Source: Candidatus Woesearchaeota archaeon (GTDB taxonomy: Archaea > Nanobdellota > Nanobdellia > Woesearchaeales > UBA10216). From it: a stretch of DNA of 64,000 bases. The stretch is taken from positions 54,453 through 118,452 of the forward strand of contig JACPCV010000004.1 of the NCBI GenBank assembly GCA_016184345.1, in the 5' to 3' direction. Position numbers and translations under genes: made by a program. Within the stretch, counting starts at the first letter, position 1; every line of letters starts with the position of its first letter. The notes below the pieces were generated by a model, which searched no databases, was not told the DNA's origin, and saw only the letters and a program-made list of their open reading frames with translations. This document shows positions 3,114-62,816 of this stretch, piece by piece.

Positions 3114-3363
3114 TACCTGATAAAATCGCGTACACCTTAAATATAATTAACACAAACTAGACACCAACTAATAATACAACCCCTGTTGTCTTATCCGTCT
3201 TTTTCATGCTTGAACAAGACATAAATTACCATTTCGGGAACGTGCAGCCACCCAGAGCTTACCTTATGGGCTATATCAGAATGGTTCAGTTAAATGCTGA
3301 AGAGATAGACAAGCTGTTGTGGAGTTCCACCCGCCATCCGCCACGAACAATTTATAGAAATCG

Positions 3364-4239
3364 TCAATAATTTCTAATAACAACTTCGTTTATCACTCCT
3401 CTTTTGGCGCCGATGCAATTAATGGCTCTCCTCGCTTTAACCGTTACGATATTGAAATCCGAGTATAATTCTCTTATGAAAGGCGTATCACTGTTGCTTA
3501 ACATTAGCAAGCAATGTTTCTTATCCAGCTCTTTAAATTCCTTAGCTAACTGCCTCTGTTCATTTTCTAAAAAAGCGCCTTTTTGGTAAGATGTGAAGCT
3601 GGCAGTTTTTGTCAATGGGAAATATGGCGGATCCATATAAACAAAATCGTCCTCTTCTGCTTTTTTTACAGCTTCAGTGAAATCGGAAACCGATAGCTCA
3701 GCATTCTGCAAAAACTTTGAAGCCATCCTTAGTTTAACTTCTTGAAGTATAGCAGGTTTCTTATATTTACCAAAAGGAACGTTAAACTTGCCTTCCGAAT
3801 TTACCCTGTAAAGCCCGTTAAAGCACGTTTTGTTCAAGTAAATGAAAATTGCTGCTTTCTCCAGCCCATGTTTCATGGTGTTAAACTTTTGTCTTTGCTC
3901 ATTAAAATACGCTTTATTGTTATCCTTATCCCTATGTTCCCTCAATAGAGGGATGAGTTCATCTACATTATCTCTTACTGATTTGAACGTATTAATCAAA
4001 TCTTCGTTAATGTCAAATAGAAAACTTTGCGACGGGTTAAACTTCTGTTTCACGTTAAAGAATACGGCTCCGCTGCCTAAGAATATCTCCAAAAAATGGT
4101 TGAACTTTTGAGGGTAAAGCTCCGAGAATTGCCTTAATAGTTGGGTTTTCCCGCCTGCCCATTTAATGAATGCTGGATTGGCTATTTGCATCTGTTCTAA
4201 TATCTGAAAATTGCCTTTAAATGTGTTTTGAAACTCCAT
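3364..4239 (-). CDS. Dam-like N6-adenine DNA methyltransferase (alpha class, D12 family)
   Basis: N-terminal motif I FLEIFLGSGAV followed by DPPY (FVYMDPPYF). 291 aa. Similar to the Dam/DpnM family. Confidence 0.85.
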   Translation of the reverse strand: MEFQNTFKGNFQILEQMQIANPAFIKWAGGKTQLLRQFSELYPQKFNHFLEIFLGSGAVFFNVKQKFNPSQSFLFDINEDLINTFKSVRDNVDELIPLLREHRDKDNNKAYFNEQRQKFNTMKHGLEKAAIFIYLNKTCFNGLYRVNSEGKFNVPFGKYKKPAILQEVKLRMASKFLQNAELSVSDFTEAVKKAEEDDFVYMDPPYFPLTKTASFTSYQKGAFLENEQRQLAKEFKELDKKHCLLMLSNSDTPFIRELYSDFNIVTVKARRAINCIGAKRGVINEVVIRNY

Positions 4240-6293: not shown

Positions 6294-7545
6294 AAATCAC
6301 GTGAGCCATGCTTTCACGTTCCCTTATAACCCTCGCCTTCCCATTGCTGACAAGCACTTCAGCAGGCCTGGGCCTCGTGTTGTACGTTGACGCCATTGAG
6401 AAGCCGTAAGCCCCAGCGACAAGTATGGCCAGCACGTCGCCTTCCTTGATTTTAGGCAGCTTCCTGTCTGCAATGCCACTTTCATTCCGCGTAAAAACAT
6501 CACCCGACTCGCAAATATTGCCGCACACAGCAATTTTTTCTTTTTTATTGCTCTCACAAGTTTCAACAGCCAGTATCGGGTGGTAGCTGCCGTAAGCCAT
6601 CGGCCGTATGAGATGGTTGAAACCAGTGTCCACTCCTACAAACTTGTGCTTTGGCGTTTGCTTAATCGTGTTCACGGTGCAAAGGAGAACACCGGATTCT
6701 GCAACAAGAAACCTTCCAGGCTCTATCACCATTGCCAGCTGCCTGCCAAAGCTGCTGCAAAAATCCGAAAAGAGCTTGCTGACAGCAGAGCCAAAGACAT
6801 TCATGTCAATCGGCTTCTGGTCAAGCTTATACGGCACCCCAATGCCACCGCCGAAGTCAACAAACTCCAAATCGCCAAGCTTCTCCCTGTTTTTGCTGAT
6901 AATTGCAAGCAGCACCTTCATTGCGTCCAGGAACTTGCCAGTCTCAAGGATGCCTGAGCCGATGTGCTCATGGATGCCAATAATTTTCAGGTTGTGTTTT
7001 GCCGCTATTTCAAACGCCTTCCCAATCTCACCAGCCCAGATGCCGAACTTGCTGTCAGGGCCGCCAGTAATGACATGGCTGTGGTGCCCTGCGCCAACAT
7101 CAGGATTAACCCTGAAGCAGACCTTTGAGCTGGGGTTGAGCTTGCCGTAGCGCTCAAGCTGCGACAAAGAGTCACAGTTGACAAGGACTTTTTTGGCAAC
7201 TGCAAACCTCATTTCCTCATCCGTAACAGAGGTTGACGTGAAGATTATCTGCTCAGGCCTGAAGCCCGCCTTCAGGGCCATTTCAATCTCGCCAGGAGAA
7301 ACTGCGTCAATGCCAACAAACTCCCCGCCTTCGTCCTTAATAACTTTCAGGATTGCAAGGTTGGTGTTTGCCTTTGCCGCATAATAAAGTTTCAGCGGCC
7401 TGCAAGGGATATTCTGAAGCAGAGCCCTGACCTTTGAGCGTATAGTTTCCTCATCGTAAACGTACAGGGGAGTGCCGAACTGCCTTGCCAAACCAGAAGC
7501 TGCGACCTCGCCAACAAAGAGCCTGTTGCCCTTTACTGAAATCAT
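6283..7545 (-). CDS. lysA: Diaminopimelate decarboxylase
   Basis: 420 aa, PLP fold-III decarboxylase (YAAKANTNLAILK lysine-PLP motif, GGGIGVPY, CGNICESGD). Confidence 0.9.
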   Translation of the reverse strand: MISVKGNRLFVGEVAASGLARQFGTPLYVYDEETIRSKVRALLQNIPCRPLKLYYAAKANTNLAILKVIKDEGGEFVGIDAVSPGEIEMALKAGFRPEQIIFTSTSVTDEEMRFAVAKKVLVNCDSLSQLERYGKLNPSSKVCFRVNPDVGAGHHSHVITGGPDSKFGIWAGEIGKAFEIAAKHNLKIIGIHEHIGSGILETGKFLDAMKVLLAIISKNREKLGDLEFVDFGGGIGVPYKLDQKPIDMNVFGSAVSKLFSDFCSSFGRQLAMVIEPGRFLVAESGVLLCTVNTIKQTPKHKFVGVDTGFNHLIRPMAYGSYHPILAVETCESNKKEKIAVCGNICESGDVFTRNESGIADRKLPKIKEGDVLAILVAGAYGFSMASTYNTRPRPAEVLVSNGKARVIRERESMAHVIYGV

Positions 7546-8717
7546 TTCCCCATCGCCTTCCTTATCCTGTCCATTGCCTCTGCAAGCCCTGCATCAGGAA
7601 CTGTCAGCGAGATGCGAATGTAGCCCTCGCCGTAGCTGCCGTAAGCAGCCCCGGGAGTAACTACAACACCGGCTTTCTCAAGCATGAGCGTGGCAAAGCC
7701 GGCAGAGGAATACCCCTCCGGAACACGGCACCACATGTAGAATGCGGCTTTTGGCTTTGCAGCCTTGACTCCAACAGCTGTTAATGTATCATAAACAAGG
7801 TCACGCCGCTTCTGATAGATGCTGTTGAGCTTCTCTATGTCCGAGTCAGGGGTATCAAGAAGCGCGGTTATGGCAGCATACTGCACAGCATTGAAAACTC
7901 CCGAGTCAACGTTGTTCTTCACAGTAGCCATTGCGGAGATTATCTCAGGATTGCCGACAGCCATGCCAATGCGCCAGCCGGTCATGTTGTAGGGCTTTGA
8001 AAGCGAATTGAACTCAACACCAACCTCCTTGGCGCCGGGCACTTCAAGGAAGCTCAACGGCCTGTAGCCGTCAAAGGCAATCTCGCTGTAAGGGTTGTCA
8101 GAGCAGACGATTATGCCCTTATCCTTTGCAAAGTCAACAACTTCCTTATAGAACTCCCTGCTGGCAACAGCGCCAGTTGGATTGTTTGGGTAATTCAGGT
8201 AAAGTATCCTGGCGTTCCTGCATGCGGCCCTGGACAAACCGCTAAGATCCGGCAGAAAACTGTTCGCTTCAAGAAGCGGAAGGTCACAAACCCTGCCATT
8301 TGCCAAAAGCGTAGCAGTCCTGTATGGGGTGTAACAGGGGTTGGGCACAAACGCGCAGTCACCTGGGTTAATGAACGCGAGCGAGAGGTGCAGGCTGCCC
8401 TCCTTTGAGCCGATAAGCGCAAGGACCTCACTCACAGGGTCAAGGCTGACATTGTGCCTTCTCTTGTACCACGCTGCAACAGCCTCCCTAAAGGAGTAAA
8501 GGCCCTCATAGTCAGGATACTGGTGGTTTTTGGGATCGTTAGCAGCCTTCTCAAGCTCAGCAATGATGTGCTTCGGAGTTGGCAGGTCAGGGTCGCCAAC
8601 AGCCAGGCTGATGACATCAACGCCGGATTTCTTAGCCTTGTCAATCTTCTTGTTAATCTCCGCAAACAGGTAAGGCGGAATCTGCTGCAATCTTCCTGAA
8701 CGGGCGAATTTTGTCAT
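7542..8717 (-). CDS. dapL: LL-diaminopimelate aminotransferase
   Basis: 391 aa class-I aminotransferase with IPPYLFAEIN at the N-terminus and SLSKPYNMTGWR (PLP-lysine). Sits between asd and lysA. Confidence 0.8.
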   Translation of the reverse strand: MTKFARSGRLQQIPPYLFAEINKKIDKAKKSGVDVISLAVGDPDLPTPKHIIAELEKAANDPKNHQYPDYEGLYSFREAVAAWYKRRHNVSLDPVSEVLALIGSKEGSLHLSLAFINPGDCAFVPNPCYTPYRTATLLANGRVCDLPLLEANSFLPDLSGLSRAACRNARILYLNYPNNPTGAVASREFYKEVVDFAKDKGIIVCSDNPYSEIAFDGYRPLSFLEVPGAKEVGVEFNSLSKPYNMTGWRIGMAVGNPEIISAMATVKNNVDSGVFNAVQYAAITALLDTPDSDIEKLNSIYQKRRDLVYDTLTAVGVKAAKPKAAFYMWCRVPEGYSSAGFATLMLEKAGVVVTPGAAYGSYGEGYIRISLTVPDAGLAEAMDRIRKAMGK

Positions 8718-8750: not shown

Positions 8751-9803
8751 TTAGCCAATCAGCCCCCTTGCTTTCATGAGCTCTGCGTTGAGGATGGCCG
8801 CGCCAGCAGCGCCCCTGATGGTGTTGTGGCCCAGCACAACGAACCTGTAATCAAGGACAGGGCACGACCTGATTCTGCCGACAACAGATGCCATTCCTTT
8901 TTCTAAGTTGCGGTCCAGCTTCGGCTGGGGCCTGTCAGCTTCCTTCCTGACAACTATAGGATGCTGCGGGGATGACGGAAGCTTCAGCTGCCTCAGCGGG
9001 TTAAAATTCTCAAAGGCGCCAATAATTTCCTTTTCAGTTGCAGATTTTGACAGCTTGACAGAAACGCATTCCGTATGGCCGTCAGAAACATTAACGCGGT
9101 TGCACTGCGCGCTTACGGCAACCTTTGCGCTTTCCACGCCATTGCTGCCGAATTTGCCGAGAAGCTTCAAGGTTTCTGACTGCACCTTTTCCTCCTCCAT
9201 TCCGATGTAAGGGTAAATGTTGTCAATGATGTCAAGGGAAGCTACTCCAGGGAAGCCTGCACCGCTCAGGGCCTGCATCGTGGTAACCATGACCTTCTCC
9301 AGGCCGAACCCGTCCATCAACGGCTTCAGGGCGAGGACCATGTGAATAGTGCTGCAGTTCGGATTGGTGACTATGAATCCCTTCCATCCCCTCAGCTTCT
9401 GCTGGGTTTTAACAAGGCCGAGGTGCTCAGGATTAACCTCCGGAATCAGGAGCGGAACGTCAGAATCCATTCTGTGATTCCTTGAGTTGCTGCTTACAAC
9501 ATAGCCCGCTTTTGCGAATTCCTCTTCGATAGGACCTGCTACAGCAGCATCAAGCGCGGAAAAAACAATGCTGCAGTTGAGGGTTGGCTTGCACTCCCTG
9601 AGCTTCATTCTCCTGGCGTATTCCGGAACATCTGCAGAAACCTTCCACCTTCCTGCCATGGCTTCCTCATACGCCTTGCCAGCAGATTCAGGCGAGGCAG
9701 CCAGCTCTGCAACCTCAAACCACGGATGGCTTTCAAGCAGCTGCACAAAGCGCTGCCCAACCATGCCTGTTGCTCCCAGAATGCCAACCTTGATTTTTTG
9801 CAT
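8751..9803 (-). CDS. asd: Aspartate-semialdehyde dehydrogenase
   Basis: 350 aa, GATGMVGQ Rossmann motif and the active-site region NPNCSTI. Confidence 0.9.
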
Positions 9804-20284: not shown

Positions 20285-20683
20285 CTATTCCCCAAGCACT
20301 TCCTTAACCCATTTGTAAAATCTCTCGGCATCCCTCAAAGCGTCAGAAGCGTCCGATTTACTCATGAGCTTTTCTTCGTACTCTGCAGTGCTTTTAATCC
20401 GCAAAAGGTTGCTTAATTGCTGGTTTTTCTTCCCAATCTCAGGAAGGTTAAGCTTACTGAGCAGCTTGATAACCGCTTCATGCCTGCTGCCGCTGTTACG
20501 AAGGCCGAGATGCTTTACTGTAAGAGCATCGGCAGCGCTTATGCCGCAATGAACAGCCGCGATAACAGCCATATTCCAGCTATCGCTGGCAAAAGCAGAA
20601 TTCATGCCGGTATGGCACTCTTCCGCCTTCTTTAAAAAGTTCTTATAAAAGCTTGATGCCACGTTTACTGTATTAGCTTCCAT
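20285..20683 (-). CDS. HEPN-domain protein (toxin partner of the upstream MNT)
   Basis: 132 aa, R-x5-H motif (RNSGSRH). Overlaps the upstream nucleotidyltransferase gene by 19 nt. Confidence 0.65.
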   Translation of the reverse strand: MEANTVNVASSFYKNFLKKAEECHTGMNSAFASDSWNMAVIAAVHCGISAADALTVKHLGLRNSGSRHEAVIKLLSKLNLPEIGKKNQQLSNLLRIKSTAEYEEKLMSKSDASDALRDAERFYKWVKEVLGE

Positions 20684-21267
20684 AAATCCTCACCCTTAAT
20701 CAAGTTGTAACTTTCAAGAACACCCTTGACAAAAGGCGTATTCTTCTTGCGGACAAACTCATTTTTTGACATAATATAAGGCGCTATCACATTACCGTAC
20801 CTTTTGACAAAAAACTGCTGTTTTTCCTCCACAAACTTCTGAACTGCTTCCTTATTGCCAGTAATGAAAAGCACATCGACATCGCTATCCGGCTTCTCTG
20901 TTCCCCTTGCAACGCTGCCGAAAACAGCGCATGAAACCATCCCATTCGGAATCTCCCTTTTTAATTCTTGGACGAAATGATCCTTAAACATTTCCGCCTC
21001 TACGCCAAATAACGTCTGGAGCGCGTTATATGCGTAGCTACCAGTGTTCAAGGTTATGAGATTTGAGCGGCCATGGTATTCCAGCTTTACCAAATTTGAG
21101 GCTTGCAGCTCTCGCAGCGCGCGCCTCACGCCAGTGTGCGTAAGCCGTATGGACTCCGCCAACTCTCTCCCGGTAAAGGTCTTTGCCTTGAATTTAAAGA
21201 GCATCCTGAGTACGTTAACCTTAACCCTACTCCCCAGCACATCCTCCAAAAAAGCGTGCAGTCTCAT
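20665..21267 (-). CDS. Minimal nucleotidyltransferase (MNT) with N-terminal wHTH
   Basis: 200 aa, GS-x9-DxD motif (AVFGSVARGTEKPDSDVDVLFI). Confidence 0.75.
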   Translation of the reverse strand: MRLHAFLEDVLGSRVKVNVLRMLFKFKAKTFTGRELAESIRLTHTGVRRALRELQASNLVKLEYHGRSNLITLNTGSYAYNALQTLFGVEAEMFKDHFVQELKREIPNGMVSCAVFGSVARGTEKPDSDVDVLFITGNKEAVQKFVEEKQQFFVKRYGNVIAPYIMSKNEFVRKKNTPFVKGVLESYNLIKGEDLWKLIQ

Positions 21268-22197: not shown

Positions 22198-22680
22198 TTA
22201 TTTTGCGGCCTTCTCGCACAAGCTAAACATGTTGGTAAAGAAGAATTGGGCGTTCTTAACGCTTTCCTTGGCAGGTTCCAAATTGGCCTGCGGAATTCTT
22301 TTGTAAGTGAACCTTCCCCGCTTTCCCTTCTCAAACTCAAAAATATGCAGAAGCGTGTCTGCCTTAACCAACATGTTTTTGTAGATGTTCAACAGCTCAA
22401 CATCAACAATTCCGTTGTCAACGAGCCTTGAAAAGGCGTCAAAAGTTTTCCTATGTTCTTCCGGAGCTTCAGTTTTTATGCCTTTCAGCAGCAAATACGC
22501 TTTGGCTGAGTAAAAAATAGAATAGTAAGCGTGTGAGATTGTTGCACTGTAATAAGTGTCTTGTTTCATGCCAAAAACGGTGACCTGCAGGCTTATATCA
22601 TCGCTAATCCGCAGAATCATAATTGAAAGGTTCAGTTCATTCTGCGACCGCTGCAGGTATAGTTTATATTCGGAATCCAC
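22198..22680 (-). CDS. HEPN-like domain protein (partner of the upstream MNT)
   Basis: 160 aa, alpha-helical, overlaps the upstream MNT gene by 17 nt. HEPN assignment rests on context and helical composition. Confidence 0.5.
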   Translation of the reverse strand: MDSEYKLYLQRSQNELNLSIMILRISDDISLQVTVFGMKQDTYYSATISHAYYSIFYSAKAYLLLKGIKTEAPEEHRKTFDAFSRLVDNGIVDVELLNIYKNMLVKADTLLHIFEFEKGKRGRFTYKRIPQANLEPAKESVKNAQFFFTNMFSLCEKAAK

Positions 22681-23314
22681 GCTTCATCCCCTCCAATACA
22701 ATGCCATAGAAAATCTGGTGATTATGCACGGCAAGGTGTTTCCGCGCTATTTGCTTTCCCAGATTCTCCTCATCATTCGTAAGCATCTCAATCATTTCCG
22801 CCCGTGGGATTACATGAACATCAACTTCAACCAAAATTTTAAGCTTCGCACTATTCACTGCTGCTTCAATCAGCTTCACTTTTTCCGGATCCTCAACGAA
22901 AATAGCGATATCTATATCGGAAGTTCGTTTTTGCTCGCCGACCGCATAAGAACCAAAAACAGCGACAGAATAGAACTGCGTGACAAGATCAAGTTCACCG
23001 GTAATCCTGGCCACTGCCAGCTTTACCTCTTTTCCAGCCCGCCTATCATTACAAAGAGCAATATAGCAAAAGGTGATATCATTTTGCAGGTTAAGCGTCA
23101 GGAGGCCAGATTTTCCAACTTTCCGCTCGATAATAACTTCTTCCCTTTTCAACTGGTTGATTGCCAAAGCCAAAGAGTTATTTGACTTCTCCCGAGAGTC
23201 TTTTTTAATCTGGCCGCGGGTATGTTCGGCAAATGGGTTCCTTGCGAACACTTCAAATATTTTCAGCTGTTTTTGAGTAAGCATAAAACCACCTAATTGG
23301 TTTATATGAACCAT
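22664..23314 (-). CDS. Minimal nucleotidyltransferase (MNT) with N-terminal wHTH
   Basis: 216 aa, AVFGSYAVGEQKRTSDIDIAIFV. Confidence 0.75.
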   Translation of the reverse strand: MVHINQLGGFMLTQKQLKIFEVFARNPFAEHTRGQIKKDSREKSNNSLALAINQLKREEVIIERKVGKSGLLTLNLQNDITFCYIALCNDRRAGKEVKLAVARITGELDLVTQFYSVAVFGSYAVGEQKRTSDIDIAIFVEDPEKVKLIEAAVNSAKLKILVEVDVHVIPRAEMIEMLTNDEENLGKQIARKHLAVHNHQIFYGIVLEGMKRGFRI

Positions 23315-23830: not shown

Positions 23831-23933
23831 TAGCCCCGCCCGGATTCGAACCGAGGTTACCGGAGCCAGAGTCCGATGTGCTTCGTCGCTGGCCTCCCGA
23901 AGAGGTCAACTTTGACCGCTACACCACGGGGCT
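23831..23933 (-). tRNA. tRNA-Gln (anticodon CUG) with a ~29-nt non-canonical intron in the D-loop
   Basis: 5' AGCCCCGTGGTGTAG, the archaeal Gln/Glu-type start. Acceptor AGCCCCG/CGGGGCT, D-stem GTGT/GCAC, anticodon stem TCGGA/TCCGG with loop CTCTGGC, T-arm CTCGG-TTCGAAT-CCGGG, discriminator A. About 29 extra nt (GGTCAAAGTTGACC and CCTCTTCGGGAGG hairpins) lie between the D-loop and the D-stem 3' strand. Confidence 0.6.
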
Positions 23934-42059: not shown

Positions 42060-42171
42060 CGCCGGGAGCGGGAACTTCACCTCCCTAGGAAAGGATTTGA
42101 ACCCGCAGGGCCTCTGGGGAAGCCCACTCGTTTCTGAAACGAGCGCGTCTACCTGATTTCGCCATCCCGGC
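42060..42171 (-). tRNA. tRNA-Leu (anticodon CAG), class II, with a ~22-nt intron in the T-loop (59/60)
   Basis: Acceptor GCCGGGA/TCCCGGC, 3-bp D-stem GCG/CGC, anticodon arm CTCGT-TTCAGAA-ACGAG, long variable arm. T-stem GCGGG...CCCGC is interrupted after TTCAAA by TCCTTTCCTAGGGAGGTGAAGT. Confidence 0.6.
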
Positions 42172-47897: not shown

Positions 47898-49448
47898 TTA
47901 AAAGTGTCCTATTTTCTTTTGACTTTCCCTCTTTGTTGATAAATCTTTAATTCCTTGCGCTTCTTTGAATGGCATATAGCTACTCGGTAATCTTAATCTC
48001 GTATCATCTAAAAATTCTTTAATGGTAATTATTTGTATTTTTGGATATTCTTCTTCCATCATCCCAATTTTAAAGAAGCCTTCCTTATTCGCTTCTTCTT
48101 TCATTGGCTTTGTTGGGTCTTCCAAAGTTATGAGAACCCCTCCAATAGCTTTTTCCCTTTTCATATCACCATTTAAAGCAGAAATATCCTTCCTTTGAAC
48201 CCCGCCGCTCTTAACCTGAATAAGAATTTTCTCAAAGTCCTTTTCAGAAGTTCTTATGATAACATACCCGTCTATTCCTTCATCGGCACTTTTCTTTTTT
48301 GAAGGGATTGCATTAACTAAACTTAAAGCCCAATATTGAAATTCAAACCTGTTTTTTAAAGCGAGTTCTTTTGCACCCCCAACGTCTTTCGGAATACCAT
48401 CAAGACTAATCTTTATGCCTTTTTCAAATAAGTGAAATTGTTTTTCTAACCTGCTTTTAATAAGAGTAATGGCTAATGTTGTAATGTCAATTCCGACCCA
48501 TTTTCTATCTAAATGTTCAGCAACAGAAACCGTAGTTCCACAACCGCAAAAAGGGTCAAGAATAACATCGCCCTTATTTGAACTTACACGGATAATTCGT
48601 TCCAAAAGTGCCTCTGGTTTTTGAGTGGGATAACCTAAAACTTCTTGGTCTCTTTTCAAAGTCATCATATCAATACCGTGCAAAGGCTTTACATCACCCC
48701 ACCAATCCCTCAAAGGATAGCCTTTTGCCTCATCTAAATATTGCCTATACCTCCCCCCACTTCCATCAGGTTGTAATTGAAAAAGCCTTCCTTTTTCGTC
48801 TATGTGCGTAAAATACATTTTTATATAATTATCATCATAAGGGGTAAATTGTATGTTAAAAGTGTATTCGCTACTCTTCGTATAAAAGAAAATTATGTCG
48901 TGCTTTCTTGAATATTTCTTAGCTTTCGGGCTTTCCCTTCCACTATAACACCATGCGATTTCATTCCTAAAATTGTTTTTATCAAATATGCTGTCTAAAA
49001 TTATTTTTAGATAATGGCTTGCGGTTGGGTCGCAATGTAAGTAAATAGACCCTGTTTTTTTCAAAACCCTATGCAGTTCTATTAATCTTATTGTCATCAT
49101 TACTAAATAAGCCATCATATCGTTTTCGCCTAAAATCTTCTTAAATCCTTGAATTAAATCAGAAATCTCAGTGTTTATTTTTGTTTTAGAAGGTCTTGTG
49201 CCTATCAGTTCTTCAAAAGTTCTTTCTGCCTCTTCCGTCCAATGCCATGTATCATCAAAAGCTTTCAGTTGTGCACCATTTTTAACAAGCCCTTCTTTAA
49301 ACAGAATATTGTATGCTCTATTGGAATTAAATGGCGGGTCAAGATAAATCAGGTCAATGCATTCATCTGAAAATCTATCTCTTAATACTTCAAGATTATC
49401 GCCAAAAAATAAGGTTCTATTTTCCATTAAGCTTATTTTTTGCACCAT
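47898..49448 (-). CDS. Beta-class DNA amino-methyltransferase fused to a C-terminal Mrr-like PD-(D/E)xK nuclease domain
   Basis: 516 aa. DPPFNSNRAYN (motif IV) then DPFCGCGTT (motif I). C-terminal ~180 aa carry ADEGIDGYVI and ILIQVKSG, resembling the Mrr catalytic GIDG / Q-x-K motifs. Confidence 0.7.
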   Translation of the reverse strand: MVQKISLMENRTLFFGDNLEVLRDRFSDECIDLIYLDPPFNSNRAYNILFKEGLVKNGAQLKAFDDTWHWTEEAERTFEELIGTRPSKTKINTEISDLIQGFKKILGENDMMAYLVMMTIRLIELHRVLKKTGSIYLHCDPTASHYLKIILDSIFDKNNFRNEIAWCYSGRESPKAKKYSRKHDIIFFYTKSSEYTFNIQFTPYDDNYIKMYFTHIDEKGRLFQLQPDGSGGRYRQYLDEAKGYPLRDWWGDVKPLHGIDMMTLKRDQEVLGYPTQKPEALLERIIRVSSNKGDVILDPFCGCGTTVSVAEHLDRKWVGIDITTLAITLIKSRLEKQFHLFEKGIKISLDGIPKDVGGAKELALKNRFEFQYWALSLVNAIPSKKKSADEGIDGYVIIRTSEKDFEKILIQVKSGGVQRKDISALNGDMKREKAIGGVLITLEDPTKPMKEEANKEGFFKIGMMEEEYPKIQIITIKEFLDDTRLRLPSSYMPFKEAQGIKDLSTKRESQKKIGHF

Positions 49449-49468
49449 CTTTAAAAACTTTCTTTTCG

Positions 49469-49663
49469 CTACTTTGTTTCTATTAAATCTACTCTTGTTT
49501 TATCGTTTTTGCTTATGACTATTTTTCCTTTTTTTATCTCGGCTTCTAAGTCTTGTCCTTCTTTCCAACCTATTTTATCAATAAGAAAATTAGGGATTAC
49601 TATCCAATGTTTTTGATATGCTTTTCCCTTGTATTCTCGGCTTTTTTGCTTTAATAGTCGCAT
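49469..49663 (-). CDS. AbrB/SpoVT-like small DNA-binding protein
   Basis: 64 aa, HWIVIPNFLIDKIGWKEGQDLEAEIKKGKIVISK. Divergent from the transposase gene across a motif-rich 117-bp spacer. Confidence 0.4.
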   Translation of the reverse strand: MRLLKQKSREYKGKAYQKHWIVIPNFLIDKIGWKEGQDLEAEIKKGKIVISKNDKTRVDLIETK

Positions 49664-49667
49664 AAGA

Positions 49668-49775
49668 AGTCTTAGATACCTACCCCTTTATAAGCATTTC
49701 GGTATCTAAACATATAGTTCCGATTAACTCTCTTTAGGTATCGAAATGTTTATATACTTGCTTAGATACCTAATA
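49668..49775. promoter_or_regulatory. Four copies of an AGATACC/GGTATCT motif in the divergent intergenic spacer
   Basis: cttagatacct at 49671-49681 and 49761-49771 (direct). Inverted ggtatct at 49701-49707 and ggtatcg near 49737-49743. Confidence 0.45.
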
Positions 49776-49779
49776 CGCT

Positions 49780-50661
49780 ATGGAAATGCAAACAAAATGC
49801 GTCTTTTGCAAAGCCACCAACTATATCAAGTGGGGTACTCGCAAAACAGAGAACAGGGGTAGTATTCAGAGGTATAAATGCCTGTCTTGTAAGAAGCGAT
49901 TTACTAATGATGATGGTTTTTACAGGATGCGAAATAGCGAAGAGAAGATTACAGCAGCTATTGACCTTTACTTTTCTAACTTGTCCAGTAGGAAGGTTAG
50001 GAACCACTTTAGAAGGCATTGGAACCATAATGCCAGTCATATGAGCATACTTGATTGGTGCCGAAGATACACCCTTAAAATCCAAAAATACGTGGCTACA
50101 ATGCAGCCACAGCTAAGTGGGCAGTTCTATATGGACGAAACCGAAATAGACAGAGGCAGGGGAAATGATGTTTTTTGGTGTAACGTGGACTGGGGAACAC
50201 GATTCATTAACTCAACAATGTATAGTCCTCACAATCAAACTGTAGAGGATGCTGCTACTTTCCTTAAAGCTACTGTTGCCAAAGGACTGCCAAAATACAT
50301 TCAGACAGATGCGGGTGTTTTTTACCCACAGGCATTTCAAAAGACCTTCTACTCAAGTAAAGCACAAGGTTTGACAGTAGAACACCGCATCCAGAACTAC
50401 CACAAAACAGGCAAGCACAACGTAAGGATTGAAACCGTCTTTATGAAGGTCAAAGACCGAGTGGACGATTTTAGAGGGCTTAAAGCCCTATGGAGTGCTC
50501 CGATACTAATGCAGGGCATAATATTACAGCATAACTTCATAGAAGCACACACAACAACAGGAAAAGTGCCTTCAGAATTAGCAGGTCTTAAACTGGAGGC
50601 AGGACAAAACAGATGGCTTGGAATGATAAAGTTGGCTTCGTCGGGAACAAAAGGTTTATAA
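49780..50661 (+). mobile_element. DDE transposase with N-terminal zinc ribbon, IS6-like
   Basis: 293 aa. CVFCKATN...YKCLSCKK zinc finger, then FYMDETEIDRGRG...NVDWGTRFI, resembling the DETY(V/I)K and D..R core of IS6-family enzymes. No matching terminal inverted repeats found. Confidence 0.5.
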
Positions 50662-53586: not shown

Positions 53587-56289
53587 TCACGCCTTAGCTT
53601 CCTGCCTTTTTGAAACCAGCTTCGGGAGGCCAGTTCCAACTGGCACGGGCTGGTTCAGCATTACATTCTCAACAACTGAAGTCAGGTTGTCAACCTCTCC
53701 GTAAAGGCTTGCATTTATTATGTGCTTTATGGGAGTCTCAAAACTGGCACGGGCAAGGACGCTTGCCTTGTCCCTTACAACACCGTACCTTGTTATGCCC
53801 TTTACCTTGCCGTCAGCGCACATGACATCGGCAACAAGCATCAAATGACGGATGTCAACGTTAAGGCCCTGGGTCTCAATGACCTTGTAAACCTCATCAA
53901 TCACTGCCTGCCTTGCAGCCTCTATGCCAAGGGTTTCCTCAATCTCAAAAACATCATTAGTTGTTGTCCTTGTCTCGTCAACGAACGGCAGCTGGAGCAC
54001 CTTCTTCAGGTTTGAGCCGAACGTGAGTATGACATACTCATTGTTCTTCCTGACAGGAAGCACCTGAGACACCCCCCTGACTCCCCTGACAAAGGTCTCC
54101 TTGGCCTTCTCCTTGAGCTTGAATATGTCGCTCACCCCGCCTTCCTTTGCCTTTACCTTGAGGATAAGGGTATCGCTTTTTATGTCAACGTGAACGCCCT
54201 TGACGCCAACCTTGAGCGCCTTGGCAAGCGTGACCTCGTTAATGCCAAGCTCCTTCATCTTGCCTGTATCAAGCTGCACCTCAATCCTGTTGTCAGCAAC
54301 ATTGATTGAGAACTCCAGGGCTATGTCCTTGAGCTTGGTCTCCTTAACCATCAGCGCAACCTTCTTGATGTCCTGGCCCTCGGAGTAGGGCTTCTTGAGG
54401 TAAATCTCCATCATCGGGGTAGTCAGGTTTTTCCTTCCATCCAGGATTTCAATAATCCTCGGCAGTCCCATGGTGACGTTCATCTCTGAAACGCCTGCGA
54501 AGTGGAACGTGTCCAGAGTGTTGTGGGTTACGATGCCGTCAAAGGTTGTGAAGGTCTCTGTATCTTCCACAGAGAAGTCATAGACGTGTACCGCAGTTGG
54601 TTTCACATAATCCAGCGCCACTATTTCGTCCCACACAACATCAGCATCCAACATCCTTTTAATTACGCCCAGTTCTTCGCTGATGTCAGCACTCTTTTTT
54701 GCTGCAAGCGCCGAGAAATTTTCGGCATACCTTGCAAGCGCTGCCCTTCCCACCTTCTGCTTCCTTGTCAGCTTGGTTACCAGCCTGCTTGGAAGCCCAA
54801 GCTTCTGGCCAAGCGCTGCAAACAGCTGCCCGTAGCCGGGAATCATGTCAATTACGTCATAACTTTTTCCCCTCACCTCAGCCGCTTCCAGCTTTTCAGC
54901 CAGCTTAACCAGCGCGGCCCTCTTTTCAGGAATCATTGAGCCAATCTTTTCCAAAAACTTTTTGCCGTACCTGTAGGAAATGGAAAGCCAGCACTGGCCC
55001 TTCTTATCCGAATTCTTTACAGAAAATATTCCCAGCCGCGTGAGCAGCAAAGAAATTCCGTCAATAAGCTCCTCAGAATTGGAGCTGGCCCTTATCACAT
55101 TTCTAATGACGCTTACATTTCCGTCGCCGTCAAAATACGCCTGCAGCAGGCTGGCGATGAAATCCTCATTGGCATCGTAAGCGAATGCGGGAATTTTCTT
55201 GTTGTCTGATTTCTTGCCGCAGACCAGCCTAAGAAGGTCTGCAAGCACTGTTGAGTGCATCCATAAGGTGGTGCTTGGCCCGAATTCGCCCATTTCGCGC
55301 TTGACGTTATAGCCGACTTTGTACTTGCCTGCGAACTGCACAGCCATTGCCAAATACTCTTCTGACACGTTGGAAATGCCTACAGAGTTCTCGACGTGAA
55401 CGCCTTCCGCGAGGTAAGCGCCAACAAGCCAGCCAAACGAGCTGTCAAGGGGCATGACTTCATGTATCTGAGCTCTGCCGTGGTTCTGGTAAGGGTAAAC
55501 AAAGCCTTCCTGGACTAAAACCTGGTTAGCTGAATTGGCGTAATTATTTATCTGCTCGTACTTCAAGGGAATTGTGGCTGCGCTGTGCAGCCTGCTGTTG
55601 CTCTCAATGGCTTTTTTAAGCTCGCTGCCATAGACATACCTTTCTTTTGGCAGGAACTCTTCAATTGCAAGCAAGTCTTTCGATCCGGCAATGGCAAGCT
55701 TCCTAAGCGCTGGAATCCTGGCGCCAACTTTTAAGCTGGAGCCTGCAACAGGCTTAACCTTGTTGTCGTCTCTTATGACAAAGGAGTGGTATGGCGTGGC
55801 TACAATCTGCCTTCCGGAAGCGGTTGTTATCCTCAACAGCTTGGAAGGAGCCGTGTGCCTGCTGACCGCAGTAATCCTGCGCCACACTATTTTCTCATCC
55901 TTGCCTAAGCTGGGCACAAACACATTGCCAGCAAGCTGGCAGACCGATGTTTGCTCGTGATTAGCCAGCTCCTTGAAGCCGTAAAACGCCATGGCGGCAT
56001 CAACGAACCTTCCAATCTCCACCGCTTTAACGCCCTGCTCGACCTTAATAATGACCTTTTCCGCATAGTCGACTGACATCTGCGTTCCTGGCTCGCCTAT
56101 GGACTCCGCAGCAACCAGGCCGACAGACTCGCCTGCCTCAACCTTCATTCCAGAGTACTCGTCAGCAATGCTCTTGGCAATCTCCTTTGCCCTTGAGTCT
56201 GAAACCTTTTCAGGCATTGCCGCAACTACCTCTGCATAGAGCCCTGGCGGAAGGGTGCCCTGAAGTTCCTTCAAAATGCTGGTTGCCAT
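53587..56289 (-). CDS. rpoA2: DNA-directed RNA polymerase subunit A'' interrupted by an intein
   Basis: 900 aa, against ~380 aa for a typical A''. Exteins: N-terminal 71 aa ending GEPGTQM; C-terminal 310 aa starting TLDTFHFAGVSEMN. Confidence 0.9.
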   Translation of the reverse strand: MATSILKELQGTLPPGLYAEVVAAMPEKVSDSRAKEIAKSIADEYSGMKVEAGESVGLVAAESIGEPGTQMSVDYAEKVIIKVEQGVKAVEIGRFVDAAMAFYGFKELANHEQTSVCQLAGNVFVPSLGKDEKIVWRRITAVSRHTAPSKLLRITTASGRQIVATPYHSFVIRDDNKVKPVAGSSLKVGARIPALRKLAIAGSKDLLAIEEFLPKERYVYGSELKKAIESNSRLHSAATIPLKYEQINNYANSANQVLVQEGFVYPYQNHGRAQIHEVMPLDSSFGWLVGAYLAEGVHVENSVGISNVSEEYLAMAVQFAGKYKVGYNVKREMGEFGPSTTLWMHSTVLADLLRLVCGKKSDNKKIPAFAYDANEDFIASLLQAYFDGDGNVSVIRNVIRASSNSEELIDGISLLLTRLGIFSVKNSDKKGQCWLSISYRYGKKFLEKIGSMIPEKRAALVKLAEKLEAAEVRGKSYDVIDMIPGYGQLFAALGQKLGLPSRLVTKLTRKQKVGRAALARYAENFSALAAKKSADISEELGVIKRMLDADVVWDEIVALDYVKPTAVHVYDFSVEDTETFTTFDGIVTHNTLDTFHFAGVSEMNVTMGLPRIIEILDGRKNLTTPMMEIYLKKPYSEGQDIKKVALMVKETKLKDIALEFSINVADNRIEVQLDTGKMKELGINEVTLAKALKVGVKGVHVDIKSDTLILKVKAKEGGVSDIFKLKEKAKETFVRGVRGVSQVLPVRKNNEYVILTFGSNLKKVLQLPFVDETRTTTNDVFEIEETLGIEAARQAVIDEVYKVIETQGLNVDIRHLMLVADVMCADGKVKGITRYGVVRDKASVLARASFETPIKHIINASLYGEVDNLTSVVENVMLNQPVPVGTGLPKLVSKRQEAKA
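54520..56076 (-). other. Intein (519 aa) with LAGLIDADG homing-endonuclease domain inside rpoA''
   Basis: Starts with Ser (SVDYAEKVIIKV, block A) and has block B GRQIVATPYHSF. Two LAGLIDADG motifs (GWLVGAYLAEG, LLQAYFDGDG). Ends VTHN followed by Thr +1. Confidence 0.8.
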
Positions 56290-58922: not shown

Positions 58923-60746
58923 TCAGTATTTTGTCTTCAGCTTAAGCTGCGGATACAGCACCAGGCTCTTGAACTCGTCAAGTATGAGCTTGAAAGCATA
59001 AGCAACCTCAATGAAGCTTATGGCAGACTCGCCGCACACCTGGCAGTAGCTCCTTCGCTTGAACTCATCATAGATTGCAACCATGCCGCAGTTCTCGCAC
59101 ACAGGAACAATGGTGCGGTCAGCATCAAACCTCTCCTTCAACAGCATTGCAGCCCCATGGGCCACAAAAGTGTCCTTCTCCATCTCACCCAGCCTTAAGC
59201 CGCCTTCCTTTGCCCTGCCCTCTGTAGGCTGCCTAGTGAGCAGCTGGATTGGGCCTCTAGCTCTCGAGTGGATTTTGTTTGCAACCATGTGCTTCAATCT
59301 TAAGTAGTACATGTCTCCCACAAAAATGCCAACCTGGAACGCCTCGCCTGTCTCGCCGTTGTACATTGTCTCAAGGCCGTTGTCCCTGAAGCCAAGGCTG
59401 AGAAGCTCCTTCCTAATCATCTCTTCCGGTTCCGAGTCAAAAACAGTGCCGTTAATGTGCCTTCCGGACAGCGCCCCAGTCTTGCCTGCAATAAGCTCAA
59501 TAAGGTGGGCCATCGTCATCCTTGTCGGAATGCTGTGAGGGCTGAAAATCAGGTCAGGGGTTATGCCTGAAGCTGTGAAAGGCATGTCCGCCTCGGGGAC
59601 AATCAGGCCAACAACGCCCTTCTGGCCGTGCCTGGAGCTGAACTTGTCACCCACCTCAGGAATGCGCTGGTCCCTTATTTTCACCTGGATGAGCTTGTTG
59701 CCCTCGCTGTTCTCAGTAATCAGGACAAAATCAATTATGCCTTCCTCACCGTGCTTCATAATCACAGAGCTCTCCCGCCTGGTCTCAGCAGAAAGCGAAT
59801 ACTGCTCCATGCTGCTCAAGAACCTCGGAGGCGAGGTCTTCCCAATAACGACATCACCCTCCCTGACCTGGGCCTCAGGGTAGATTATGCCATCCTCCTC
59901 CAAAAAGCGGTAGTCCTTCTCGCTCTTAAAGCCCTTGACATCCTTGGCAGGAATGCAAACCTCATCAACCAGGCCGCCAGAATACCTGAGTTCCTCTGCA
60001 ATCATGGGCCTGTAATAACTGCCGCGGCCCATGCCCCTTCCAATCGAGCCGCCGTTAATGATAATGGCGTCTTCCATGTTGTAGCCCTTGTAGCTCATAA
60101 CAGCAACAACAAGGTTCTGGCCCGCAGGGTGCTTCCCGTATTCTGAAATGTCATGCATGACTGACTTGACAACAGGCATCTGCGGATTGTGAAGGAGGTT
60201 GACATCCATGTCCATCCTTATCATGTAGTTGGAAGCGTAAAAGCCAATCGCCTGCTTCTGGTTCTTCGAACCGGTATTGACCTTCTGCGCAGAGTTGAAG
60301 TTTGCATAAGGAACAAGGCTTGTGACCAGGCCAAACATCGTAAGAGGGCTAAGCTCAAGGTGCGTGTGCTGGGGCGTAAGCTCCTCCTCAAAGAAGGCAA
60401 CAAGCGCGTTTTCCTCTTCAGCAGCGTCAATGTATTCAATGACGCCCTGCTTCACCAAGTCAGACCACTTAAGCTCGTTCCTTCCAAGCTTGTCAACATG
60501 GTCAGGCGTGAGCATAGTCCTGCCATCCCTGACTACGATAAGCGGCCTCCTCAAGCGGCCCTTCGCAGCCTCTATGTGAACCTCATCGCTCGCAGCGTTA
60601 AAGTAGACATTAACATTCTCTGAGAGGGCATTCCGCCTCCTCTCCTCGCGCATTGAAGCGGCAAATGCCTCGCCGTCCTCAACCGTGCCTACAAACTTCC
60701 CGCTCAGGTACACATCAGACATTTTCACCACATCACTGCCTGGCAA
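58923..60746 (-). CDS. rpoB1: DNA-directed RNA polymerase subunit B' (C-terminal half of split RpoB)
   Basis: 607 aa. Likely start MSDVYLSG a few codons into the ORF, overlapping the B'' stop. C-terminal zinc ribbon CENCG...CQVCG. Confidence 0.9.
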   Translation of the reverse strand: MPGSDVVKMSDVYLSGKFVGTVEDGEAFAASMREERRRNALSENVNVYFNAASDEVHIEAAKGRLRRPLIVVRDGRTMLTPDHVDKLGRNELKWSDLVKQGVIEYIDAAEEENALVAFFEEELTPQHTHLELSPLTMFGLVTSLVPYANFNSAQKVNTGSKNQKQAIGFYASNYMIRMDMDVNLLHNPQMPVVKSVMHDISEYGKHPAGQNLVVAVMSYKGYNMEDAIIINGGSIGRGMGRGSYYRPMIAEELRYSGGLVDEVCIPAKDVKGFKSEKDYRFLEEDGIIYPEAQVREGDVVIGKTSPPRFLSSMEQYSLSAETRRESSVIMKHGEEGIIDFVLITENSEGNKLIQVKIRDQRIPEVGDKFSSRHGQKGVVGLIVPEADMPFTASGITPDLIFSPHSIPTRMTMAHLIELIAGKTGALSGRHINGTVFDSEPEEMIRKELLSLGFRDNGLETMYNGETGEAFQVGIFVGDMYYLRLKHMVANKIHSRARGPIQLLTRQPTEGRAKEGGLRLGEMEKDTFVAHGAAMLLKERFDADRTIVPVCENCGMVAIYDEFKRRSYCQVCGESAISFIEVAYAFKLILDEFKSLVLYPQLKLKTKY

Positions 60747-62274
60747 CAGGCTTCAAGCCGTAGTTGCGCATAAGCTTCAAAACATCATCCTCATTAGCGT
60801 CAAGGCTCACCGTAGCGACAAGCGACAGGTTTTTCTTCAGCCCAATGTTGGTGCCTTCAGGCGTCTCGATCGGGCAAAGCCTGCCAAGATGGGTGCAGTG
60901 AAGCTCCCTCGCCTGGAAGTTCTCCTGCGTTGCCGAAAGCGGGCTGACAACCCTCTGAAGATGGCTCATCATCTCAAGGAAATTAAGGCGCTGTATCCTC
61001 TGGCTGACGCCCTTCCTGCCGCCAACCCAGGCGCCTGTTGCCATTGAGCTGTAAATCCTTGAAGTAAGAAGCTTCTCCCTGATAATAACCTTAAGCGTTG
61101 GAAACTTGCCCCTCTTGACAACGCGCTGGAAGTTATACAGCAGGTCACCAATAAGCACTTTGAGGTTGACCCTGAGCAGGTCAGCAAGCAGGTCGCCTGA
61201 AAGCTTCAGCCGCTTGTTCATGTAGTGGTCCTTGTCATCAGCAGGAAGCTGCCCCCTCAGGCCCAGGATGTATTTCCTCACCATCTTGCAAAGGTTGTAG
61301 GCCTTCCACATCCTGTCCTTAGTAACTATGCCAAGATGGGGAAGAAGGTACTTGTCAAGGATTTCCTTCATGCGCTCAAGCCTGATTTCCTTCGGCTGGG
61401 TGATGCCTGAAACCTTGGCAATCGCATCCATGGCATCCTCCTCAGTCTTTAAGTCAGCAGAATCCAGGAGGTTAACGAGAAGCTCGTCAAAGTTCTCTGA
61501 GCCGGCTATGAACCTCATGATTTCCTCATCCTTGGTAATGCCCAGGGCCTTTATGACTGCAATAAGCGGAACCCTCCTGACCCTGGTGAATGTGAGATAG
61601 AAAATGCCATCCTTCATCCTTTCAATGGTGTGCGGAATCTTGTAAGAGCCCTTCTCGGAAAATATCTTGCAGACCAGCTTCCCGGTGCTGCCCGACTCCT
61701 TGTCAATAAGGACCTTGTTGGAAGCAAGGTCTTCAACCTTGACCAGCACTTTTTCAGTGCCGTTGATAATGAAGTATCCGCCGGGGTCGTCAGGGTCCTC
61801 GCCGTGCTGGACCAGCTCCTCGCTGCTGAGCTTGTTCAAATGACAAACCTTTGACTTAAGCATCACAGGCAGGCTGCCAATCTGGGTCTCAAAGCTCTCG
61901 CGCTGCGCGCCGTTAATGTGCGCGCTGACGGTAATGTACATCGGGGCAGCGTACGTAAGCTTCCTGAGCCTTGCCTCCATCGGGTAAATCTTCCTGACAG
62001 AACCATCAGCCTCGGTTATCTCGGGCTTTGTGATCCTGACATTGTCAAACCTAATCTTGAACTCGTCAACATTAGGCGGGATGATTGTAGGCAGGATTTC
62101 CCTGTTCTCCTCAATGATTGAGTTGAGCTCATTGTCCAGGAAATAGTTGAACGACTCTATGTCTGACTTTACAAAGGACTGCTCCTCAAAGAACTTCTTC
62201 ATGAGAACAGCGTAGTTGTTCATTCCATCAGCACCAAACGAATTTAAACCAACACTATGTAAGCACAACAACAC
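60733..62274 (-). CDS. rpoB2: DNA-directed RNA polymerase subunit B'' (N-terminal half of split RpoB)
   Basis: Probable start at MNNYAVLMKKFFEEQ (~62223) with GGTG upstream. About 496 aa. Confidence 0.9.
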   Translation of the reverse strand: MLLCLHSVGLNSFGADGMNNYAVLMKKFFEEQSFVKSDIESFNYFLDNELNSIIEENREILPTIIPPNVDEFKIRFDNVRITKPEITEADGSVRKIYPMEARLRKLTYAAPMYITVSAHINGAQRESFETQIGSLPVMLKSKVCHLNKLSSEELVQHGEDPDDPGGYFIINGTEKVLVKVEDLASNKVLIDKESGSTGKLVCKIFSEKGSYKIPHTIERMKDGIFYLTFTRVRRVPLIAVIKALGITKDEEIMRFIAGSENFDELLVNLLDSADLKTEEDAMDAIAKVSGITQPKEIRLERMKEILDKYLLPHLGIVTKDRMWKAYNLCKMVRKYILGLRGQLPADDKDHYMNKRLKLSGDLLADLLRVNLKVLIGDLLYNFQRVVKRGKFPTLKVIIREKLLTSRIYSSMATGAWVGGRKGVSQRIQRLNFLEMMSHLQRVVSPLSATQENFQARELHCTHLGRLCPIETPEGTNIGLKKNLSLVATVSLDANEDDVLKLMRNYGLKPVARQ

Positions 62275-62494
62275 GGTAAAAAACCGTCTGCCCTGCCGTC
62301 GCGCTTTTCCTGGTAATCCTGATTATGTCGCCAAACTTGACGTTCATGCCGAGCAACACGGCATCCCTCTTGAGTATGCGCGGGAAATCCTCAGCCCTTG
62401 AGCTGAACTGCTTCAGAACCTCCTCTTTCTCCTTCTCCGAGAGCTTCTCGTGCTTCGGAACAAGCACATGCTTCTTAACGTCAATCCTCTTCAT
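62255..62494 (-). CDS. rpoH: DNA-directed RNA polymerase subunit H (Rpb5-like)
   Basis: 79 aa. HVLVPKHEKLSEKEKEEVLKQF. Its 3' end overlaps the rpoB'' start. Confidence 0.85.
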   Translation of the reverse strand: MKRIDVKKHVLVPKHEKLSEKEKEEVLKQFSSRAEDFPRILKRDAVLLGMNVKFGDIIRITRKSATAGQTVFYRVVVLT

Positions 62495-62515
62495 TTTTGA
62501 ACCCTCTGGATTAGG

Positions 62516-62649
62516 CGGGCCGGACGGGACTTCCCTACCTTATCCTTTTTGGCCAAGCTTTTTGCTCGCCACAGCGAGGAAAAAGGTTGTTTGAACCCGC
62601 GACCCACGGATTAAAAGTCCGTTGCGCTGCCAGGCTGCGCTACCGGCCC
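62516..62649 (-). tRNA. tRNA-Lys (anticodon UUU) with a 60-nt intron in the T-loop between positions 59/60
   Basis: GGGCCGG-TA-GCGC-AGCCTGGCA-GCGC-A-ACGGA-CTTTTAA-TCCGT-GGGTC-GCGGG-TTCAAA[60-nt insert]T-CCCGT-CCGGCCC-G. The mature sequence is 74 nt with all stems paired. CC follows the discriminator. Confidence 0.7.
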
Positions 62650-62720
62650 GATAATGCCTGGATGATGCAAGTTGGCATTAGCCGACTGCACATTCCGCCT
62701 CGCGGAATTGTGAGCGAAAG

Positions 62721-62816
62721 CGCCCTGGCCGGGACTTTCAAAACCGCTCGGTTAATTTGAACCCGGGTCGCAGCCGTGACAGGGCTGTATTCTAGGCCAG
62801 GCTGAACCACCAGGGC
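62721..62816 (-). tRNA. tRNA-Asp (anticodon GUC) with a 21-nt intron at T-loop position 59/60
   Basis: GCCCTGG-TG-GTTC-AGCCTGGCCTA-GAAT-A-CAGCC-CTGTCAC-GGCTG-CGAC-CCGGG-TTCAAA[TTAACCGAGCGGTTTTGAAAG]T-CCCGG-CCAGGGC-G. Confidence 0.7.

Follow-up and report, generated by a model that had tools for sequence, protein, structure and literature searches.

Genomic context of the tRNA genes

The window analysed here, a 64-kb stretch of DNA (64,000 nucleotides), carries four tRNA genes on its minus strand. tRNA-Asp(GUC) (62816..62721) and tRNA-Lys(UUU) (62649..62516) lie upstream of rpoH (62255..62494, minus strand; Pfam RNA_pol_Rpb5_C, E 4e-26), the first gene of the RNA polymerase operon. tRNA-Leu(CAG) (42171..42060), a type II tRNA with a long variable arm, and tRNA-Gln(CUG) (23933..23831) are located elsewhere in the window. 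Downstream of tRNA-Lys the operon reads rpoH, B'', B', A' and an intein-containing A'', the Rpb2 and Rpb1 domains being found downstream of rpoH; rpoB is split in the window (B'' and B'). The A'' subunit (53587-56289, minus strand) reaches 900 aa because of its intein, which bears a LAGLIDADG homing-endonuclease domain.

Judging by its RNA polymerase genes, the window comes from a DPANN Woesearchaeota archaeon. Its RpoB'' is 96% identical to that of a Candidatus Woesearchaeota MAG, and the best RpoB'' matches are labelled Woesearchaeota or Nanoarchaeia, as are the 80 best genomic relatives, with some exceptions. The exceptions among these 80 are entries named "uncultured Methanosarcinales" and one "Syntrophales bacterium", which are catch-all or evidently mismatched deposit names. 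Taxonomically, the Woesearchaeota belong within the Nanobdellati, equivalent to DPANN, and we take the host to be a tiny groundwater archaeon. The preliminary description of this DNA had read the tRNA introns as informative about lineage, with DPANN groups among the candidates, and the RpoB'' match bears this out.

A gap of 21 nt (62495-62515) separates the 3' end of tRNA-Lys from the ATG of the downstream rpoH, and the synteny of tRNA-Asp, tRNA-Lys and rpoH is kept in most of the 80 related genomes (L001-L080). The conserved order, together with this short gap, hints that the tRNAs are co-transcribed with the RNA polymerase operon or that the tRNA gene overlaps a promoter. An exact-protein look-up of rpoH retrieved three independent public assemblies, all short contigs, that match the Asp/Lys region exactly over 155-483 nt upstream of rpoH; those of 326 and 483 nt span the introns of both tRNA-Asp and tRNA-Lys and that of 155 nt spans tRNA-Lys and its intron. 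This agreement shows that the region is no artefact of assembly.

Elsewhere in the window, two patches of low GC content (1737-4239 and 47898-50661; about 34-35% against a mean of 47%) encode DNA methyltransferases together with a methylase-restriction fusion and a DDE transposase-like ORF, and probably represent mobile or defence islands. Genes for a HEPN protein and an adjacent nucleotidyltransferase, located just upstream of the tRNA-Gln region with a separate nucleotidyltransferase ORF further on (20285-21267 and 22664-23314, minus strand), look toxin-antitoxin-like.

Four tRNA genes interrupted outside the anticodon loop

When the four genes were folded by hand, the acceptor stem, D-arm, anticodon arm and T-stem were found to be perfect in each of them, with one extra block of sequence. 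In tRNA-Lys, tRNA-Asp and tRNA-Leu the block comes after GGGTTCAAA and before a T and the 3' strand of the T-stem, which therefore places the insert at site 59/60. The exons of tRNA-Asp are 62816..62756, ending at A59, and 62734..62721, starting at U60, and flank an intron of 21 nt (62755..62735, TTAACCGAGCGGTTTTGAAAG). Those of tRNA-Lys are 62649..62590 and 62529..62516, on either side of a 60-nt intron (62589..62530), and those of tRNA-Leu are 42171..42096 and 42073..42060, around an intron of 22 nt (42095..42074, TCCTTTCCTAGGGAGGTGAAGT).

In tRNA-Gln the block separates the D-loop from the 3' strand of the D-stem. It follows directly on AGCGGTCAA, the mature D-loop, as an intron of 30 nt at the 3' edge of the D-loop (23911..23882, AGTTGACCTCTTCGGGAGGCCAGCGACGAA) between exons 23933..23912 and 23881..23831. 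Flanking A residues make the placement of this junction ambiguous: 20a/20b, 20b/21 and 21/22 are equivalent and give the same product.

In silico removal of the inserts led ARAGORN to call tRNA-Lys(ttt) of 74 nt, tRNA-Asp(gtc) of 75 nt and tRNA-Leu(cag), the latter as a perfect type-II cloverleaf; tRNA-Gln(ctg) was called after any D-loop deletion of roughly 24-35 nt. The preliminary description had claimed non-canonical introns in all four tRNAs, and indeed each gives a clean cloverleaf only once one insert has been taken out. The lengths it gave for the T-loop inserts of tRNA-Lys, tRNA-Asp and tRNA-Leu (60, 21 and about 22 nt) agree with the ARAGORN calls on the spliced sequences. For tRNA-Gln its D-loop location stands, and its length of about 29 nt is to be amended to 30 nt, at the 3' edge of the loop. 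None of the four genes (0/4) has a canonical intron.

Detection by standard tRNA finders

Ordinary finders miss or mis-fold most of the tRNAs of this Woesearchaeota stretch. On the raw window, ARAGORN with default settings returned a single tRNA, a mis-folded tRNA-Leu of 91 nt with a wrong acceptor stem and T arm; allowing introns in the anticodon loop added a poor 94-nt "Arg(ccg)" fold at the tRNA-Gln locus. Both calls were discarded in favour of the spliced folds. With the Rfam tRNA model, tRNA-Lys alone passed the threshold (30.1 bits), its T-arm being skipped, tRNA-Gln (27.2 bits) and tRNA-Leu (21.8 bits) remained below it, and tRNA-Asp was missed altogether in the window at the gathering and E-value thresholds. 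The Rfam search of the window thus produced partial tRNA matches only, and no other RNA family of note. Both ARAGORN and Rfam fail on the unspliced genes, as anticipated in the preliminary description. Consequently, apparent gaps in DPANN tRNA sets can be artefacts of annotation rather than biology.

Additional tRNA genes were sought across the whole 64-kb window with two scans. One submitted to ARAGORN all single deletions of 10-130 nt that are BHB-like, on either strand (n=398,779); the other searched for a T-arm, whether or not it held a 59/60 insert, together with a matching acceptor stem within 450 nt upstream. Neither scan found a tRNA locus beyond the four, which in the second were the only candidates whose 5' parts resemble a tRNA; both scans are of a kind that would overlook split genes and genes interrupted within the acceptor or T-stem. 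Two isolated ARAGORN calls (20739..20534 and 59172..59061) are not tRNA-like and overlap protein-coding ORFs. All four, that is every tRNA gene detectable in the window, are interrupted. A tRNA-Tyr gene was looked for in the window and is absent from it; relatives have one upstream of tRNA-Asp, with a homologous intron.

Structure of the exon-intron junctions

Archaeal bulge-helix-bulge (BHB) motifs consist of an outer helix and a central helix of 4 bp with a 3-nt bulge on each strand, cleavage taking place after the second base of each bulge. In our model of the T-loop site, the T-stem is the outer helix and U54-U55-C56-A57 the exon strand of the central helix, whose second strand is formed by intron bases -6 to -3. 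A58-A59 and the first intron base make up the 5' bulge, and intron bases -2 and -1 with U60 the 3' bulge.

Folding the junctions in search of BHB or relaxed motifs, the check proposed in the preliminary description, gave strict motifs in tRNA-Asp and tRNA-Leu and relaxed ones in tRNA-Lys and tRNA-Gln. The central helices of tRNA-Asp and tRNA-Leu have four Watson-Crick pairs and 3-nt bulges (strict hBHBh'). In tRNA-Asp, U54-A57 (62761..62758) pairs with intron TGAA (62740..62737), with bulges AA|U and AG|U. In tRNA-Leu the central helix joins UUCA to UGAA, with bulges AA|U and GU|U. Next comes an inner hairpin of 6 bp, which was read by hand; the minimum-energy (MFE) fold draws one of 5 bp in a shifted register.

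The tRNA-Lys junction forms three of the four central pairs, its intron offering GGGA followed by AG|T (U-A, U.G, C-G and an A57.G mismatch), and the BHB-constrained fold lies 2.4 kcal/mol above the MFE and so is not the minimum-energy fold. In tRNA-Gln, three of the four central pairs also form, G18-G19-U20-C20a facing GACG (3 bp of GUC/GAC, plus G.G). The best geometry places the 5' cut after AGCGGTCAA (bulge AA|A) and the 3' cut at AA|G, and the intron holds a 4+5-bp hairpin inside. The outer helix is not contiguous, making this a relaxed motif of the HBh' type. The mismatches of tRNA-Lys (A.G) and tRNA-Gln (G.G) fall where the relatives pair.

Conservation of the T-loop introns among relatives

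To compare the T-loop introns, loci were fetched around rpoB'' from the 80 related genomes, including the region upstream of rpoH, which served as the context gene anchoring the comparison. Applied to these genomes, the scan of BHB deletions with ARAGORN was too noisy to be read directly and was replaced by spliced alignment of the mature tRNA-Lys and tRNA-Asp of the window.

In the closest relatives the exons are identical to those of the window, at 74/74 positions for tRNA-Lys and 75/75 for tRNA-Asp, and the inserts at the same site differ in length and sequence. The tRNA-Lys intron measures 60 nt in the window and 51, 38, 36, 94, 52, 23 and 23 nt in close relatives. The tRNA-Asp intron measures 21 nt in the window and 56, 53, 58 and 35 nt in L001, L004, L005 and L007, the exons being 75/75 identical in L001, L003 and L005 with aligned inserts of 56-89 nt. 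The aligned inserts of L003 and L006 (89 and 92 nt) span a duplicated 3' exon, which inflates them, so that the introns themselves are truly shorter. In both genomes (L003 3415-3578, L006 3423-3589) the 14-nt tRNA-Asp 3' exon TCCCGGCCAGGGCG is repeated about 40 nt downstream, and the repeat could be the leftover of an integration or duplication at the 3' end of the tRNA gene. Intron-less orthologues were also encountered, of tRNA-Lys in L015, L048 and L075 and of tRNA-Asp in L044.

In the orthologous tRNA-Lys introns the segment facing the T-loop reads TGAA, TGGA or TGAG. The window intron is odd compared with its close relatives, having a G where theirs have a T, at the base opposite A57. For an ungapped alignment, 96 T-loop junctions were cut out at constant distances from the T-stem. 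Since pairing of the T-stem was imposed at extraction, the central helix provides the only independent test. It is paired in 93.9% of cells, and two of the four pairs show compensatory changes: 17 distinct sequences have G57-C for A57-U, and 7 have C55-G for U55-A. None of 500 shuffles reached the observed covariation score, and once the partner columns were slid by 1-3 positions, overall pairing of the structure was at most 60%, against 97.3% in register.

Such tRNA interruptions are the rule in this DPANN Woesearchaeota archaeon. Among its relatives, 71 of the 75 analysable tRNA-Lys orthologues are interrupted, by one to four inserts each, as are 56 of 57 tRNA-Asp orthologues, that is about 95% of the orthologous Lys and Asp genes of the 80 genomes, most often at 59/60. 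By insert positions that are approximate, as read from the spliced alignments, the T-loop site ranks first (47 in Lys, 48 in Asp), against 23 and 32 for the canonical region and 31 and 13 for the D-loop. Canonical introns coexist with the others in orthologues of both genes. For a little-studied lineage, these data add near-universal interruption of tRNA-Lys and tRNA-Asp, a prevalence of 59/60 and a fast turnover of introns.

Conservation of the D-loop intron of tRNA-Gln

An exact-pattern scan of metagenomes with the tRNA-Gln anticodon arm of the window found nothing. A broader pattern, requiring an insert between the GG of the D-loop and the CUG anticodon loop, retrieved 45 tRNA-Gln genes. 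Eleven of these (L084, L085, L090, L092, L094, L098, L104, L107, L116, L117 and L120) bear an insert directly after AGYGGYCAA. Their last intron bases before the bulge are GACT, GATT, GGCT or AACT, a segment that pairs with GGUC or GGCC (GGYC), fully so in 10 of the 11, and the site covaries among these homologues through a double change from U20-A to C20-G. Insertion at the same spot and pairing in 11 metagenomic genes therefore fix the site and the mature D-loop. About 27 of the 45 loci were set aside as not having the same site, their insert following the D-stem (25/26-like); they are near-identical, GC-rich and mostly end in CCA.

Proposed processing and alternative explanations

The BHB geometry, the conservation of exons, the covariation and the restored cloverleaves together identify ordinary archaeal splicing-endonuclease introns. 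The reading as non-canonical introns put forward in the preliminary description is upheld: cloverleaves are restored, junctions are BHB-like, exons are kept while introns vary, and the helix covaries. As far as sequence can tell, the four inserts are very probably archaeal BHB introns at non-canonical sites, excised by EndA and joined by an RNA ligase. Gene interruptions of this kind are already known, and their presence in a DPANN archaeon calls for no new mechanism.

At the T-loop site, the pre-tRNA would refold locally, keeping the T-stem as outer helix. The near-invariant U54-U55-C56-R57 would pair with a YGAA-type segment (UGAA in tRNA-Asp and tRNA-Leu), 3-6 nt before the 3' end of the intron, into a 4-bp central helix. 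A58-A59 and the first intron base would bulge on the 5' side, the last two intron bases and U60 on the 3' side, and a cut after the second base of each bulge would leave exon ends at 59 and 60. The EndA protein would excise the intron, and an RNA ligase, which in archaea is of the RtcB type, would then join the exons. tRNA-Gln would follow the same logic, with G18-G19-U20-C20a of the D-loop as the exon strand of the central helix.

Within this scheme, the geometry of the junctions, its conservation and its covariation are observed. Cleavage by EndA, ligation and, at tRNA-Lys and tRNA-Gln, the need for an EndA of relaxed specificity would follow by analogy with the established archaeal pathway. 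Efficient cleavage of tRNA-Lys and tRNA-Gln would presume such an enzyme, as each has one mismatch (A.G and G.G, respectively) in its central helix. The pattern of interruption thus predicts a splicing endonuclease of relaxed specificity in these organisms. The tRNA_int_endo domain was absent from the 60 window ORFs searched with Pfam, and tblastn and phmmer searches with the Methanocaldococcus jannaschii EndA as query, validated against PDB 1a79, found no EndA in the window or in any fetched locus.

Alternatively, the four loci could be pseudogenes, decaying or disrupted by remnants of mobile DNA, that keep their inserts and have functional copies elsewhere. Two observations lean this way: the central helices of tRNA-Lys and tRNA-Gln are one pair short compared with those of relatives, and a module of roughly 40 nt from the tRNA-Lys intron also occurs in intergenic repeats of the distant relative L025. 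Yet the exons show perfect conservation and every cloverleaf pair is intact, the junction helix covaries, no other tRNA genes were found in the window, and about 95% of the orthologues in the 80 genomes are interrupted alike, which decay would not maintain. We consider pseudogenes very unlikely.

Less likely still are folds with a canonical intron or none, in which the tRNA-Gln locus would encode tRNA-Arg(CCG), interrupted by 10 nt in the anticodon loop, and the tRNA-Leu would be an unspliced molecule of 91 nt. These are the calls that ARAGORN makes on the raw sequence, but in the 94-nt Arg(CCG) fold the D-stem is weak, the anticodon stem contains a C.A mismatch and a long "variable" region stays unpaired, and the unspliced tRNA-Leu has mismatched acceptor and T stems, whereas the spliced tRNA-Gln and tRNA-Leu fold perfectly and the former fits the D-loop format AGYGGYCAA of its homologues. 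The preliminary description had itself raised canonical-position folds as the alternative to look for, and those drawn by ARAGORN, once examined, are poorer than the spliced ones. Finally, there is hardly any chance that the inserts are kept in the mature tRNAs as expanded T- or D-loops, as 21-60 nt between 59 and 60 would destroy the T-loop/D-loop elbow, the length and sequence of the insert are unconstrained among relatives save for the BHB segment, and intron-less orthologues exist.

Relation to known tRNA introns

Non-canonical BHB tRNA introns are reportedly known in Crenarchaeota/Thermoproteales from the work of Marck and Grosjean in 2003 and Sugahara et al. in 2008. A review covers these introns and has 59/60 and 20/21 among their published sites (PMC4090602). 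The introns described here are likewise short, lie outside 37/38, sites 59/60 and 20/21 included, have BHB or relaxed BHB junctions and are missed by scanners, and several per gene are possible (here in the relatives). They differ in that the host is a DPANN Woesearchaeota archaeon and not a member of the TACK group, and in that inserts at 59/60 outnumber those at the canonical site in both of the orthologous genes surveyed. Canonical 37/38 archaeal introns are built on the same BHB architecture and presumably depend on the same enzymes; in our introns, however, the exon strand of the central helix comes from the T-loop or D-loop rather than from the anticodon loop. As in the split and permuted tRNA genes of Nanoarchaeum equitans and Caldivirga (PMC3218864), processing would be BHB-dependent. 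Unlike those genes, no trans-splicing is needed, since the exons in the window are contiguous and in normal order.

In DPANN, EndA variants with an extra loop have been tied to increased tRNA disruption in a survey that included one Woesearchaeota genome, and incomplete tRNA sets were proposed there to hide, probably, unrecognised disrupted genes (PMC5829648). Variants of the enzyme comprise an alpha4 form with the L3 loop and the epsilon2 form of ARMAN-2 (PMC5829648, PMC3239211 and PMC12397907). The present genes resemble the disrupted DPANN tRNA genes in belonging to the same superphylum and in the relaxed BHB substrates to be expected. These three articles centre on the enzymes, and the specific 59/60 introns of tRNA-Lys, tRNA-Asp and tRNA-Leu and D-loop intron of tRNA-Gln, with their comparative pattern, are not described in the portions of them that were accessible. 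Our findings should be useful for the annotation and the natural history of DPANN tRNA genes.

Intron sequences shared between tRNA genes

Some intron sequences are common to different tRNA genes in Woesearchaeota. The core of the 60-nt tRNA-Lys intron, about 40 nt, consists of CAACCTTTT, a variable hairpin and AAAAGCTTGRCCAAAAA. It was also found in 59/60 introns of tRNA-Tyr (L004 and L007), tRNA-Asp (L004 and L036) and tRNA-Lys (L010), the module copies lying at L004 2212-2271, L007 about 973-1032, L010 631-668 and L036 about 3526. The invariant core between the window intron and those of L004, L007, L010 and L036 is TTTT...AAAAGCT...C.AAAAA, and the window intron is about 84% identical to the tRNA-Tyr introns of L004 and L007 over 43 nt. 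The orthologous tRNA-Lys introns of the nearest relatives, of 23 nt, are unrelated to that of the window. A role of the 60-nt intron as a C/D-box guide RNA, terminator or promoter was considered; no C or D boxes were seen in it by eye.

From these sequences, the sharing of the tRNA-Lys intron, seen in a small sample and partly in low-complexity sequence, suggests that introns are exchanged between tRNA genes or are mobile. Conversion between neighbouring genes would account for it equally well. In L001, the closest relative, the 59/60 introns of the adjacent tRNA-Asp and tRNA-Lys genes (55-332) are 97% identical over 35 nt.

Transposition of tRNA introns has been reported in Thermoproteales (Fujishima et al. 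2010, as summarised in PMC4090602). The similar introns seen here at the same kind of site in different tRNA genes resemble that case; ours differs in concerning DPANN, in its small sample and in the occurrence of the module outside tRNAs as well. It is conceivable, though we put it forward tentatively and lean against it, that the Woesearchaeota 59/60 introns form a mobile or exchanging family for which the invariant T-loop U54-R57 serves as a universal docking helix. If so, introns, or a small repeat riding in them, would move between DPANN tRNA genes, and such mobility would explain why 59/60 outnumbers the canonical site.

In L025, the module appears twice in reverse orientation (7440-7560 and 8810-8880), in intergenic positions inside the RNA polymerase operon. 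Each copy is preceded by a hairpin, and its final AAAAAGGTTGT abuts an ATG; the module may be a small repeated element in this genome. The tRNA-Asp 59/60 introns of L045 and L069 (131 and 94 nt), two different genomes, have an inverted-repeat segment of 31 nt, gtgagcgagttcgcaacgagctcactcgca, in common without a single difference, which looks like the insertion of a small palindromic element into these introns. Lastly, the sense strand of the window tRNA-Lys intron carries a run of T5 (62580-62584, minus strand), with T5-T6 in the homologous introns. The run resembles an archaeal oligo-T termination signal within a tRNA gene, and lies 5' of the hairpin, not 3'.
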